From: Sphyrna mokarran
Lineage: Eukaryota
DNA: 64,000 nucleotides
Assembly: GCA_024679065.1 (NCBI GenBank)
Contig: JAGIQG010000018.1
Span: forward strand, 25,358,001 to 25,422,000
Direction of reading: 5' to 3'
Below are positions 1 through 51,610 of the stretch, piece after piece (within the stretch, counting starts at the first letter, position 1; each line of letters starts with the position of its first letter). The notes under the pieces were generated by a model, which was given only the letters and a program-made list of their open reading frames with translations, searched no databases and was not told the origin of the DNA. A program made the position numbers and the translations under genes.

Positions 1-1373
1 TATGTTGATATTGAGAGAGATTACTGTCATCACAGCTGTTCATCATATTCTCTGGGGCAATTCTCCCATTGCTAATTTTCTAGAGCAGCAAGTTGGGAGA
101 ATTGCGTGGTGGGCAATTTTCAGTATTGCTGTGGGAGTTTGTGCTTTGTTAGGATCTCTAGGCGCTGGATTTCTAGCGCAGTCTGATGCTGTAGGAAATT
201 GGCCGGGAGTCAGCACTAACACTTAAATGATATTTTACATATCATTTAAATGCTATTAGTGGGCCACAACTGAATTCTCCAGGTCAGCTAGGCTTTCCAC
301 CCCACCAGAGTGTTTCGCTTCAGCAGGGATTACATTAGCTCCCCATTTTTGGGGAGATAGTGGCCTAACCCCATTCGGGTGAAGAGGGGTAATTGGCACT
401 ACCAAGGGGCAATGTGCCCATGCCCAGGAGGCACCTAGCAACTGGGCAGAGCATTTGGGAGGAGGTGCCTAGAGGCAATCAGTTGGGGTGGGAGTTCCTG
501 CTCCACTTTGCACTGGGATTGAGGGGATCGGCCCCCAGGGCTGGGGGTAGGGTATTTTCTCTGGGTGAGAACCTGCCATGGGTGGGGTTCTGCCAGGGGT
601 GTTTCAGAAGGGAGACTTGGCACTGCAGGGAGCAGAAGGGCTAGAGATCTGGGTGGGCCGTCTGGGACAGTGGAGCTGGAAATGGTCAGGGGGGCCACAA
701 TTGGTCTGTGGAGATTTTGGAAGGCAGCACTGTGGGGATCTTGGGCTGACCAGCGATCGAGCTGGCCAGCAAACGGAATGTTGATAGTTCAGGGCAACTG
801 CACCTGCGCAGAGTCTTGCCAGTTCTGACTTCTCCAGCCGATTTAGGCCCTAGTCCCCAAATCTAATGATATTCATGCTGATGGCCACTGCAGTGCACAT
901 GGAAGATTTTAGTGTGAACTCCCACTGAAAAAGCCAGCGTAAATTACTCCAGTTTTCCCATGAATTCAACACTTGGAATTTTTTTTGGGAGAATTCTGCC
1001 CTTCATCTCTTTCCTGTACTCCACTTCAACATTGTTTGAGATCCGACCCACTATGGTGGTGTCATTGGCAAACTTTGAAAATTGAATTAGAGGAAGATTT
1101 GGCATAGGTGATATAAGGAGTATAGTAAAGGGCTGAGAACACAGTCTTGTGAAGCATCAGTGTTGAGGATGACTATGGAGGAGGTGTTGTTGCCTATCCT
1201 TACTAATTGCGGTCTCTGAGTTAGGAAGTCTAGGATCCATGCCAGGGGGAGGAGCCAAACCTCAGGCCATGGAGTTTGGAGATGAATTTTGTCAGAATAA
1301 TGGTGTAGAAGGCTAAGCAGTAGACAATAAATAGGAATCTGACATAGGCGTCTTTGTTGTCTAGATGCTCCAG
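1..1373 (-). mobile_element. Rex1/Babar-clade LINE reverse transcriptase fragment (1-53 and 1002-1373), split by a MITE
   Basis: Minus strand reads LEHLDNKDAYVRFLFIVYCLAFYTIILTKFISKLHGL, resembling the Rex1 LEHLDNKxxYVRMLFIDYSSAFNTI motif. A decayed KFADDTT-like motif lies at ~1050-1075. Confidence 0.75.
54..1001. mobile_element. Non-autonomous DNA transposon (MITE), probably PIF/Harbinger-type
   Basis: Imperfect terminal inverted repeats ggggcaattctccc (54-67) and gggagaattctgccc (987-1001). GC-rich noncoding interior. The Rex1 fragment resumes on both sides. Confidence 0.55.
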
Positions 1374-41009: not shown

Positions 41010-41705
41010 AACTGCACCTTGGTTTGTGGCAATTCTAACCTCTAAATCAGAAGGTTATGAGTGCAATCTTCAATCCAGTGATTTTGGCCTATTTACAGGC
41101 TGACATCCCCAAGTGCAATAATGAAGTATACTGCACAGCCAGAAGATCAATATCAATGAGGGAGTGCTGCACTGTTGGCAGGTCAGTGCGGAGGATGTGC
41201 CGCACAGTCTGCGGGTCAGTGCTGAAGAAGTGTCGTACTGTCGACAGACCAATGCTGAGGGAGAGCTGCATTGTCCGAGGATTAGTGCTGAGGGAGTGCT
41301 GCAATGTCAGCGGGTCAGTACAGAGGGAGTGCTGCACACTGTCGGTGGATTAGTGCTGAGGGAGTGCCACACTGTCAGCGGGTTAGTGCTGAGGGAGTGC
41401 CGCACTGTCAGCGAGTCAGTGCTGAGGGAATGCTGCACTGTCACCGAGTCAGTGCAGGGACAGTGCCACACTGTTGGTGGATCAGTGCTGAGGGAGTACT
41501 GACTGTCGGTGGGTCAGTGCAGAGGATGTGCCGCACTGTTGGCAGGTCCATGCAGAGGTGTGCTATATTGTTGGCGGGTCCGTGCAGAGGGAGTGCTGCA
41601 CTGTTGGAGAGTCAGTACTGATGGAGTGCTGCACTGTCAGAGGGCAGTGCTGAAGGAGTGATGGAATGGCAAAAAATTGCTCTTCTAATGAGATATTAAG
41701 CTTTA
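41010..41705 (+). repeat. Deu-domain SINE whose core has expanded into a 33-bp minisatellite (~15 units, ~41150-41660)
   Basis: SINE head (aacctctaaatcagaaggttatgagt...aggctgacat), then tandem cagtgctgagggagtgctgcactgtcagcgggt units, then resumption tcttctaatgagatattaa. Confidence 0.85.
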
Positions 41706-46475: not shown

Positions 46476-47477
46476 AAATCTTGGAATTCTCTTTGGTGGA
46501 TACACAAACTTCAGCAGTTTAGGAAGATGGCTGAGTACCACCTTCTGAAGGGTATTTAGGGATGGGCAACAAATGCTTGATTTGTCAGTGATGCTCACAC
46601 CCCATGAAGGAGTAAAGAAAATAATCACAGAGTCTCAGTGACAGAATATGAACTGTTTGATACAGTCAGATCTTGTAATTCAAGCCTGGCCTCCTCAGTG
46701 GATGGCTTGCTGCTGTATTGATTAGCCGCTCACAAACAGAGCTTCGTGTGATTTACCTTCGTCCATATCTGAATATTTGTAATCCTCTGAGAAAATTAAA
46801 TCAAGGAGCATTTCACACTGACAAGCTATCCATTTCCAAGCTTGGAATTTGTCTCAAATCTGCATATATATAAAAAATATGATGCAGCTGGAGACTGGGA
46901 GAATAATGCTTAAATCTCCTGATATACTGCAGTTATTAATCTTCCTACAGTCCAGTTCAAACATCGATCTGAAGTGCTAACTCTTTCTTTCTTCACAGCT
47001 GCTGTCTGTCCTGCTGAATATTTTCAGCATTCTCTGTTGCATTGCTTTATAAAGAACTAAACCATTTTTGTAAAACTGGCCTTTGTTTGTTTCAATTCTC
47101 TGCTTAATCATTAGCACTGACATTTATTCCATTGGGAATGTTTGTTCAGGGTGGACACTTGCCCCTTGAGTGATGTTTGTCCCGTGGGAAGTGTTTATCC
47201 TGGGAAAATATTTGTCGTGGGAGAATGTTTGCTGCTACTGCCTGCACTAAAGTCTTTCCAACCACTGCAAATTCCACTGTACCTGAGTGTTATTCATGGC
47301 ACGCTTTCTGCTCAGATCCACAGAGCAGCCATGCAATTTCCAGGACATATCTTCCCACCACATCCCTGAGAAAAGAAGGCTTTGCCACTGCACAGGTGGA
47401 AGGGATTCCTGAATCTCCATGATAATAAAAACATAATCTTCTGTGTCTTGAGGGAATTAATCAAATAGAGTAGCTTG

Positions 47478-48290
47478 TTTGATTTGATTTATTGTTGTCA
47501 GATGTATTTGTACAGTGAAAAGATCAAGTTTAGTATCGACGTGCTGTAGTTGGTTGAAGTCATTAGGTTACATTTTAGCTTCATTTGAAGCAATTTTTAA
47601 AAGCAGCATCTCGGCCTTTTGGCTAAGATGCAAAAGAGATCAAACCTTGGAGGAGATGTAATGCCTACTCCAATCAGTTTGGATCATGTAGATCAAGCCC
47701 AAGACAGGAGATGAGAGTTTTGTCTTGTCAGTTTGGATCAGGAATGTCTCATTTGATGAGACTTTGAATTGGACTTGATTTGATTGAATTGAATAAATAA
47801 ATCTAAAAAAAAATTGTTTCTTGTGCGCTATACAGACAAAACATTCATAAAGAAGGAAAGGAGAGAATGCAGAATGTAGTATTACAGTCATAGCTCGAGA
47901 AATATCAACTTAATTATAAGGTAGGTCCATTCAAAAGTTTGATGGCAGCAGGGATGAAGCTGTTCTTGAATCGGTTGGTACATGAGCTCTGACTTTTGTA
48001 TCTTTTTTCTAATGGAAGACGGTGGAAGAGAGAAAGTCTGGGTTGCGTGACATTCTTGATTATACTGGCTGCTTTTCCAAGACAGCGGGAAGTGAAGACA
48101 GAGTCTTTGGATGGGCGGCTGGTTTGCGTGCTGGACTGGGCTTCATTCATGACCTTTTGAAGTTTCTTGGGGTCTTGGCCAGAGCAGGGGTCATATAAGC
48201 TATGATATATCCAGAATGGTGCATCTGTAAAACTTTGTGAGAGTTGTAGTGGACATGCTGAATTTCCTTAGCTTCCTGAGAAAGTAGGAG
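47478..48290 (-). mobile_element. Rex1/Babar LINE 3' end, interrupted by the U2-containing element
   Basis: ORF 47914-48150 SRCLGKAASIIK...HRLPLEKRYKS...TNRFKNSFIPAAIKLLN is the Rex1 C-terminus; (tttga)n tail at 47478-47490. Confidence 0.85.
47520..47812 (+). mobile_element. U2 snRNA-derived short retroposed element (candidate SINEU-like)
   Basis: 47520-47537 matches U2 nt 23-40 at 17/18; 47606-47629 matches U2 nt 4-27 at 23/24; tandem hairpin body; aataaataaatctaaaaaaaa tail. Confidence 0.7.
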
Positions 48291-49597: not shown

Positions 49598-49984
49598 AAC
49601 TACTGATCAATCAGATTGGTTGGCAACTCTCTAGGGTAGGATTTCAATTGAATGTAAAGAGGCAATGGTTAGATTCTCTTTTCTTGGTGATGGTCATTGT
49701 CTGAGATTTTGTGGTATGAATGTTACTTGCCACTTGTCAGTCCAATCCTAGATATTGTCCAGGTCTTGCTGTATTTAAATATGGACTGCTTCAGTATCTA
49801 ATGAGTCATAAATGATACTAAACATTGTACAATCATCAGTGAACATCCCCACTTCCAAACTCATGATGAAAGGAAGGTCATTGATGAAACAGTCAAAGGT
49901 GGTTGGATGTAGGCATTGCCCTAAGGAACTCCTGAAGTGATGTCCTGGAACTGAGCTACCGATCTCCACCAAACACAACCATCC
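49598..49984 (-). repeat. Patchwork inverted duplication of 50346-50393 and 50909-51252
   Basis: Direct reverse-complement comparison: 45/48 for the first segment. The near-identical ORF texts 49775-50032(-) and 50915-51316(+) share the same frameshifted reading. Confidence 0.9.
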
Positions 49985-50529: not shown

Positions 50530-51610
50530 TCCAGTATAGATACAACGTTGGCATTCACCCAGCAATGTACGGAAAAAGCAGGACAAATCCAACCCATCAA
50601 TTACCATGCGACAGTCTGCTCTCGATCATCAGTGAAGTGTTTTAGGGGTCAACAGTAGCACTATCAATAGGCACATACTCTGCAATAACCTGCTCACTGA
50701 TGCTCACTTTCCATTCTGCCAGGACCATCCAGCTTCTAATCTCACTGCAGCCTATGTTTAAAAATGGACAAAAGAGCTAAATGCCAGAGACAAGGTGAGA
50801 ATGACTGCCTTTGACATCAAGGCAGTATTTAATTGTGTGGGCATCAATGAGTCCCAGCAAAACCAAAGTCAATCCTCCTCTGGTTGGAGTCATACCTAAC
50901 AAAAAAGAGGATGGTTGTGTTTGTTGGAGATCGGTAGCTCAGTTCCAGGACATCACTTCAGGAGTTCCTTAGGGCAATGCCTACATCCAACCACCTTTGA
51001 CTGTTTCATCAATGACCTTCCTTTCATCACAAGGTCAGAAGTGGGGATGTTCACTGATGATTGCACAATGTTTAGTATCATTCATGACTCCTCAGATATT
51101 GAAGCAGTCCATATTCAAATACAACAAGACCTGGACAATATCGAGAATAGGACTGACAAGTGGCAAGTAACATTCATACCACACAAATGTCAGACAATGA
51201 CCATCACCAAGAAAAGAGAATCTAACCATTGCCCCTTGACATTTAATGGAATTACTATCACTGAATCCCTCACCATCAACATTCTGGGGATTAGCATTGA
51301 CCAGAAACTGAACTAGCCAGCCATATAAATATTGTGATTATAAGAGCAGGTCAGAGCCTAGGAATTCTATCGCAAGTAACTTACCTCCTGACTCCCCAAA
51401 GCCTGTATACCATTTACTAGGTGTAAGTCAGGGGTGTGACTGGACATTCTTCACTTGCTTGGATGACTGCAATTCCAACAACACTCAAGAAACCTGACAC
51501 TATCCAGATCAAAGCAGCCCACTTGATCGGCACTCTATCCACAAGCATTCACTCCCTCCACACAGAAAAACAGTGGTAGCAGCATGTATCATCTACAAGA
51601 TGCACTGTGG
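50530..51610 (+). mobile_element. LINE family B RT region
   Basis: ORF 50915-51316 FINDLPFITRSEVGMFTDDCTMF...IQQDLDNI...KWQVTFIPHKCQ; AFDIKAVF motif at ~50810. Confidence 0.85.

Follow-up and report, generated by a model that had tools for sequence, protein, structure and literature searches.

What is the element that carries, in the tail of a LINE, two tandem hairpins whose inner stems differ in sequence and pair in both, and do those stems reflect selection on RNA? We examined this question in a 64,000-nt stretch of DNA (hereafter the window, taken at its whole length), where an earlier note, made from the letters alone, had described the two units and a third hairpin within a U2-derived element.

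The element inside a LINE tail

The window is LINE-rich eukaryotic DNA with reverse transcriptase fragments and one ORF of at least 150 aa; its repeats are of types usual in sharks and rays, and the host is probably a cartilaginous fish. The window also holds a tandem array at 41157-41660 (33-bp unit, ~15 copies, 74% matches) and an inverted pair of LINE fragments at 49637-49984 and 50909-51257 (93% identical over 349 nt, ~900 nt apart). The element and its surroundings comprise the following features.

47476 to 47522, minus strand: left flank, the extreme 3' tail of the host LINE, with very high summed depth at 47478-47509
47521 to 47813, plus strand: whole element, a ~293-nt U2-derived, non-coding, poly(A)-tailed retroposon copy
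47792 to 47813, plus strand: tail signals, with overlapping AATAAA at 47792-47797 and 47796-47801 and a poly(A) of 9 at 47805-47813
47814 to 48267, minus strand: right flank, the host LINE 3' UTR and a decayed C-terminal ORF piece (47914-48267)

The ORF remnant of the host LINE is 70% identical over 92 aa to P0002, a PF09004-bearing protein. The locus was compared with contigs aligned at 80% likeness from 4 of 24 runs (15 studies and 12 organism labels overall). The four runs carry the labels of four organisms and contributed 22,054, 23,059, 10,012 and 703 contigs, counts in which the flanking LINE is included. Empty-site joints leading from 47498-47512 to 47807-47814 were present in all four runs, and loose contig ends passed from the left flank (47512) directly into the flank at 47814. 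These joints and flank-to-flank reads indicate that 47521-47813 was inserted into a LINE tail that lies on the minus strand. Its 5' edge lies at 47520-47523, blurred by 2-3 letters common with the host; target duplication is absent, and one host letter is lost relative to the empty-site contigs.

Other contigs began to match at 47521-47523, one of them at its own first letter, and one X19 contig matched 47523-47790 with different flanks. Run X19, possibly of RNA, covers the host LINE as well and was not taken as evidence of expression. As many as 128 counted contigs in a run covered a single element position and contigs bridged the module junctions, while summed depth, which is not copy number, was highest at the junction of units 1 and 2. 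The element belongs to a high-copy family and is a multi-copy unit with shared structure, as opposed to a collection of chimeras formed independently. Further groups of contigs began matching at 47550 or at 47577-47578, with other letters before these points that differed by run; these starts may mark modular subfamilies with different 5' modules.

No ORF of at least 90 aa overlaps the insert, and the 64-kb window contains no second copy of the element. Pattern scans for family copies returned none in viral contigs, where the U2 motif was likewise absent, and none in genome contigs. The six pattern matches in metagenome contigs, none extending past 36 nt, were judged to be chance, and plasmids gave six weak chance matches.

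Paralogous hairpins in one register

The coordinates and letters of the two units and of the third hairpin agreed with those first described.

47637 to 47685, plus strand: unit 1, U2 nt 24-31, a 12-nt insert and diverged U2 nt 32-61
47637 to 47685, plus strand: unit 1 architecture, an outer stem, an internal loop, a middle helix and a small apical loop
47690 to 47739, plus strand: unit 2, paralogous to unit 1, its insert 14 nt long and its middle helix re-lettered
47746 to 47762, plus strand: third hairpin, a 6-bp stem with a variable 5-nt loop, pair probability 0.77-0.80

Folded alone, each unit formed an outer stem, an internal loop and a middle stem (unit 1: -12.2 kcal/mol, z -1.23, 28/200 shuffles; unit 2: -15.9 kcal/mol, z -2.78, 5/200 shuffles). 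Because the flanks common to the two units set the register, the chance of the inner stems could be tested. At fixed register, at least six Watson-Crick pairs arose for unit 1 in 327 of 1,000,000 shuffles and seven for unit 2 in 26 of 1,000,000. With one base of slack the counts were 248 and 25 of 200,000, and for a stem anywhere in the inner segment they were 426 and 34 of 20,000. The pairing of the inner stems in both units, which the earlier note had pointed out, is thus beyond chance by shuffling at fixed register. The middle helix of unit 2 has pair probabilities of 0.97-0.99, and its apical loop (47713-47716), worked out by hand with the majority letters of the relatives, is a GNRA-type tetraloop.

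Counted inward from the internal loop, six of the eight middle-helix pairs have both letters changed from one unit to the other, five of these six being Watson-Crick in each unit (binomial 0.005, post hoc). The other two pairs are unchanged, both carrying U2 letters. RNAalifold, run on the two units only, returned 16 pairs, with four changed on both sides and none broken. These data show that the two units are hairpins in one register whose changes mirror each other, the covariation being seen between the two paralogous units.

No Rfam family matched the 64-kb window at gathering score, and none was found for the units. Hammerhead, SECIS, iron-responsive element, histone stem-loop and kink-turn were rejected, none of them having an Rfam match.

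Pairing in the majority letters of relatives

Variant columns in the aligned contigs are unphased, and the statements that follow cover the 40 of 74 variant rows that were listed, 34 of them inside the element. This copy differs from the majority of all four runs at 47656 and 47711, where G makes up 75-97% and 93-99% of depth, and at 47678 and 47732, where C makes up 96-100% and 89-94%. At 47644, which pairs with 47678, the majority has G (90-99% of depth), so that an A-U pair in this copy is G-C in the family. Counted by hand, all nine majority differences at modelled paired positions among the listed rows (47549, 47644, 47656, 47678, 47711, 47718, 47719, 47720 and 47732, with 47711 pairing with 47718) improve pairing.

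Fifteen of the 34 listed element rows fall on modelled pairs and 14 of the 15 keep pairing, in a hand tally that is unphased and partly circular, since the apical pairs were modelled from majority letters, and in which C-to-T decay always scores as a G-U pair kept. The exception is 47657 T>A, which reaches a share of 35% and breaks a wobble. No listed row lies in the Watson-Crick middle stems or in the third stem; among the rows listed (40 of 74), the third hairpin varies at loop positions 47752 and 47756. As the majority letters pair better than this copy, the stems are a property of the family and this copy has decayed.

The stems are therefore present in the majority letters of the relatives, and stronger there. 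The outer stem that had been drawn from the common flanks does fold, with the correction that G-C pairs in the majority letters take the place of the A-U or G-U pairs of this copy. The GAGATG loop start, described as shared by the units, did not hold up in that form: its letters are partly private to this copy, and in majority letters most of it belongs to a further short stem. The dips in depth over both apical regions were put down to clustered private changes of this copy. Variants at 47657 and 47660 occur at near-equal shares in each run (34/28, 21/16, 2/1 and 35/30%), and they probably represent one linked subfamily change in the apical loop of unit 1.

Inserted copies decay neutrally, as the CpG-type changes at 47612/47613 illustrate, so selection could act on master copies only. 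The mirrored double changes between paralogous units and the stems in majority letters speak for the view, put forward in the earlier note, that compensatory change here implies selection on RNA structure; that note had overlooked template switching, which is a live rival and is weighed below. On balance, RNA-level selection on the stems is likely.

U2 ancestry of the pieces

As U2 references we used L009 (183.5 bits) and L045 (173.1 bits; both Rfam U2), which come from eukaryotic contaminant contigs. Eukaryotic U2, in some cases in tandem, occurs at 49 loci (L007-L055) in bacterial MAG assemblies, which points to host contamination of those genomes. The following parts lie upstream of unit 1.

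47520 to 47537, plus strand: head, U2 nt 23-40 at 17/18 identical, with the branch-point recognition stretch (1 and 0 of 2000 shuffles)
47578 to 47591, plus strand: small hairpin of 5 bp, followed by a T/A-rich linker, pair probability 0.73
47606 to 47631, plus strand: exact match to nt 7-27 of U2 stem-loop I, with a stem lengthened by 3 new pairs, z -3.64

The Rfam U2 model matched exactly over its positions 7-26 at 19.5 bits, under the gathering score of 46, and this was the sole meaningful one among six E-value matches near the element. Aligned directly, 47606-47633 corresponds to U2 nt 4-30 (0/2000 shuffles). Within unit 1, 47657-47680 matches U2 nt 32-55 at 17 of 24 ungapped positions, a result reached in 97 of 2000 shuffles against all of U2 and in 196 of 20,000 when U2 nt 32-65 was targeted. 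For unit 2, 47723-47734 matches U2 nt 44-55 at 11 of 12 (115/2000 against all of U2, 142/20,000 against nt 32-65). Each unit aligns to U2 nt 24-61, and its 12-14-nt insert pairs with the part matching U2 nt 38-48. The segment U2 nt 24-31 is present three times, starting at 47521, 47637 and 47690. The likeness of the agatcaa unit start to U2 nt 24-30 had been noticed before and was seen again; it has to be extended through the 3' half of each unit. Minor variants at 47663 (A), 47664 (T) and 47667 (G) carry the U2 letters, and majority letters lower the match of unit 1 to L009 from 17 to 15 of 24 (background 52/127,952).

These alignments moderately support a history in which the units would derive from U2 nt 24-61 plus a fold-back insert, with subsequent duplication. 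The inner segments alone showed no local similarity to U2 (19,682 and 14,276 of 20,000 shuffles), and the inserts showed no likeness to reverse-complemented U2 (12,717 and 9,073 of 20,000). No match to U2 beyond ~nt 61, to the Sm site or to the 3' stem-loops was found in the element. Two other origins were rejected: U2 stem-loop III as the source of the unit 1 helix (851-1609 of 2000 shuffles) and U1 as the source of any part of the element (at least 557 of 2000 shuffles; 121 nt of U1 tested). Positions 47581-47600, around the small hairpin, and 47749-47768, around the third hairpin, are 75% alike over 20 nt, less so with majority letters, which offers a hint that the element might be a dimer of two U2-headed monomers.

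A head with two antisense partners

Two segments of the element are complementary to the U2 head.

47522 to 47555, plus strand: unit 0, a local hairpin, its 3' arm (47541-47555) complementary to U2 nt 25-39
47768 to 47781, plus strand: distal arm, which pairs with 47521-47534 and closes the element end to end, within a degenerate 5-nt repeat tail

Unit 0 was predicted when 47521-47636 was folded alone. Its arm forms 13 of 15 pairs with the window letters and 14 of 15 against U2 letters (254/500,000 shuffles), and C at 47549, found in 93-100% of depth, restores a unit-0 pair. The distal arm forms 14 of 14 pairs (36/500,000 shuffles), equalled at 2 of 127,972 window positions. In the whole-element fold of this copy, the distal helix has a probability of 0.80-1.00 and the unit-0 helix 0.00; the fold reaches -82.4 kcal/mol (z -3.47, 0/200 shuffles), with z -3.03 for the minus strand. 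Every copy of U2 nt 24-31, and the U2 nt 33-48 segment, is either predicted to be paired or mutated.

Compared with a perfect U2 complement, the unit-0 arm is changed at six of nine wobble-tolerant positions and at none of six intolerant ones (Fisher 0.017, using the majority C at 47549). This wobble bias is a sense-strand, RNA-type signal; four of the six changes are A-to-G, and adenosine editing instead of selection could account for them.

The landing site and a probable partner LINE

The insertion site matches U2 nt 35-48 at 10 of 14 letters, with the break at the nt-39 point (background 89/127,972 window positions); one of the ten matching letters comes from the host contigs, and the likeness concerns one site. 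The first 10 letters of the right flank resemble U2 nt 39-48. In Utopia/Keno insertions the 3' flank starts at U2 nt 39 (PMC4640811, in part). The U2 head of the element ends at nt 40, near the end of U2 identity in L011 and L039, and behind its U2 head L039 encodes a Tx1-type ORF1 domain (PF23057, 63 bits).

In L039 itself (1-557, minus strand, a MAG contaminant), U2 nt 1-42, shortened by a 5-nt deletion, precede a 5' UTR and an ORF that encodes a ZCCHC3 RNA-binding domain; this is the start of a U2-headed LINE of Tx1/Keno type. Four loci of one MAG (L010, L032, L035 and L046) hold repeats headed by variant U2, and in some of these the heads are in tandem and an ACC-repeat tail is present; they are a candidate U2-headed SINE family of another eukaryote. 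In L011, L016, L023 and L031, U2 5' fragments end near nt 41, 48, 33 and 36 and are followed by unrelated DNA, possibly as Keno/Utopia junctions or tailless retrocopies. Tx1 elements are reported from whale shark and elephant shark (PMC8455134, in part). The U2-like insertion site is a lead to Keno-type target choice, one site being no preference, and we regard a Keno/Tx1 partner of the element as fairly likely. No such partner LINE was found.

Comparison with known systems

SINEU-1, -2 and -3 occur in crocodilians and were reported to have been found in no other group, and they are described as elements with recurrent U1/U2 addition, partial duplication, poly(A), TSD, TST or neither, and oligo-T (PMC4494074, in part). 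The element agrees with these short (<500 bp) non-coding retroposons in its ~293 nt and in its poly(A) at 47805-47813 after two AATAAA signals. Where SINEU takes its 5' piece from U1 or U2, the element has U2 nt 23-40 at its 5' end and U2 nt 4-30 inside. Its snRNA pieces have likewise been added or duplicated repeatedly, as the three U2 nt 24-31 copies and the paralogous units attest. It shares internal oligo-T and the lack of a tRNA-type Pol III head. SINEU targets are duplicated, truncated or unchanged, and here there is no duplication and one letter is lost. The probable partner of SINEU is the Tx1 clade (PMC4494074, in part), and the single site of the element is 10/14 like the Keno target. 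Likened by description and not by consensus sequence, the element works like SINEU and shares seven of the nine SINEU features considered, its being a multi-copy unit among them. The other two are a target preference in common with a Tx1-clade partner and sequence kinship with the SINEU consensus in a crocodilian host.

The differences are as follows. No U1 piece was detected in the element (121 nt of U1 tested), and its landing site resembles U2 itself and not Mariner-N4. SINEU-3 deletes ~50 bp after nt 32, whereas the element keeps a duplicated U2 nt 24-61 with antisense inserts. The accessible part of PMC4494074 describes no RNA structure.

With Keno/Utopia the element has in common a 3' flank like U2 from nt 39 onward, a U2 head ending near nt 40 and a poly(A). 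Unlike Keno, it lacks the two ORFs (AP endonuclease and RT), although a truncated 3' end is possible, and it sits in a LINE tail and not in a U2 gene before nt 39, with 10/14 target letters. From U2 snRNA (RF00004) it has nt 7-27 exactly, nt 23-40 at 17/18 and, more weakly, a colinear nt 32-61 twice; but the order is rearranged, stem-loop I is extended and the branch-point segment is paired or mutated. Compared with a U2 gene or full pseudogene, it scores 19.5 bits, over model positions 7-26 only, against the 46 needed. The element is neither Keno nor a U2 gene.

No U2-derived SINE from sharks or rays turned up in the open-access literature searched, including the accessible parts of PMC4758252, PMC5786205, PMC5381603, PMC10468316, PMC8455134, PMC3747384, PMC11979771 and 10.64898/2026.10.27.761883. 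Judged by this open-access literature, the family would be undescribed; Repbase or Dfam may hold it.

Proposed origin and selection of the stems

It is highly likely that the element represents a U2-derived, SINE-like family. The fuller account that we favour, with somewhat better than even confidence, is a SINEU-like retroposon mobilised by a Keno-type Tx1 element, whose master RNA would be selected for its fold and for masking U2 splicing motifs. On this account, a U2 nt 24-61 piece would have acquired a fold-back insert after nt 31 and then been duplicated to give the two units; another U2 head, reaching to nt 40, would have been placed in front. Transcription would be by Pol II from an outside promoter, in a U2 locus or in flanking DNA. 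T runs inside the element (47573-76, 47594-98 and 47617-20), as in SINEU, disfavour Pol III, and no tRNA was found in the 64-kb window. A Keno-type Tx1 LINE protein would nick U2-like sites and prime on the poly(A).

Master copies would be selected on RNA fold and not on helix sequence, the helix serving as a spacer with free letters between retained flanks, a retained internal loop and a retained apical stem. The U2 segments hidden here are those of branch-point recognition and U6 pairing. Their pairing or mutation would yield a compact, stable template and prevent the RNA from working as a defective U2 in the spliceosome. That masking of U2 motifs is the selected benefit is a tentative proposal, possible but somewhat short of even. 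A wider version is unlikely in its entirety: a 'disarmed U2 mimic' SINE family, widespread in cartilaginous fishes, in which compensated self-antisense clamps would hide branch-point and U6-pairing sequences, the head would switch between local hairpin and tail pairing, and a Keno-type LINE would deliver the element to U2-like sites genome-wide.

Hairpins can arise and be repaired in a single step through template switching (10.1101/2021.04.15.439925, in part), and the stems might be a mutational by-product of this process, with fold-back events during reverse transcription or replication making and re-perfecting the arms under little or no selection. Each insert adjoins sequence complementary to it, four arms antisense to U2 nt 24-31 lie within 293 nt, and the minus strand is nearly as far from its shuffles as the plus strand, all of which fits such a process. 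It would, however, yield perfect Watson-Crick arms, whereas the unit-0 arm departs from perfection only by wobble-keeping changes. Both units also retain their internal-loop geometry and apical stem despite a re-lettered helix, majority letters are common to four runs labelled as four organisms, and structure-breaking changes rarely fix (10.1101/2021.04.15.439925, in part). We consider this origin, the main rival, unlikely. If instead the two units were sites for one protein (a LINE ORF2p or a host RNP protein) that recognises the internal and apical loops, a narrower idea in line with the protein-binding or RT-recognition module suggested in the earlier note, U2 masking would be incidental. 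This proposal draws on the conserved flanks and loop geometry with free helix letters, on the summed depth peak at the unit 1/unit 2 junction, and on analogy with stringent SINE/LINE pairs, in which 3' stem-loops with variable stems are recognition signals (PMC3747384, in part). But the units have different apical loops, which also vary among relatives (47657-47664), and it is the third hairpin, not the units, that sits at the 3' end. We rate it as rather unlikely; it is compatible with the favoured account and differs from it in the selected benefit only.

The two remaining alternatives concern the nature of the insert. A 5'-truncated 3' UTR of an autonomous Keno/Tx1 LINE with U2 relics, its hairpins being a cis signal for its own ORF2 protein, would explain the AATAAA and poly(A), the U2-like target site, the 5' junction microhomology of 2-3 letters, which truncated insertions also show, and the absence of U2 nt 1-22 before the head. 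Other contigs nevertheless start matching at 47521-47523 too, the U2 piece stops at nt 40 like the 5' heads of U2-associated elements (L011, L039), the first base is predicted to pair with the tail, and no ORF of at least 90 aa overlaps the insert; such a remnant is very unlikely. A host non-coding RNA gene or plain U2 pseudogene at the locus could claim the strong predicted fold and the exact U2 stem-loop I, but the lack of an Rfam match at gathering score, a U2 match ending at ~nt 61 and the absence of U1 (121 nt tested) tell against it. The sequence also interrupts a LINE tail, has many relatives and pairs worse than their majority, which leaves this last reading with hardly any credibility.

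Implications

The paper defining snRNA-headed SINEs leaves their transcription and recognition open (PMC4494074, in part). To the crocodilian description the present family adds a testable RNA structure with internal covariation, together with high copy number across several species and a landing site suggestive of a Keno-type Tx1 partner. If the host is a shark or ray, SINEU-like elements are extended to another vertebrate lineage. The family also makes testable whether a retroposon built from a spliceosomal RNA must neutralise the functional motifs of that RNA in order to spread. If the wider 'disarmed U2 mimic' version is true, then, with SINEU-3 deleting the same segment, it would describe in general how retroposons derived from snRNA evade the spliceosome.
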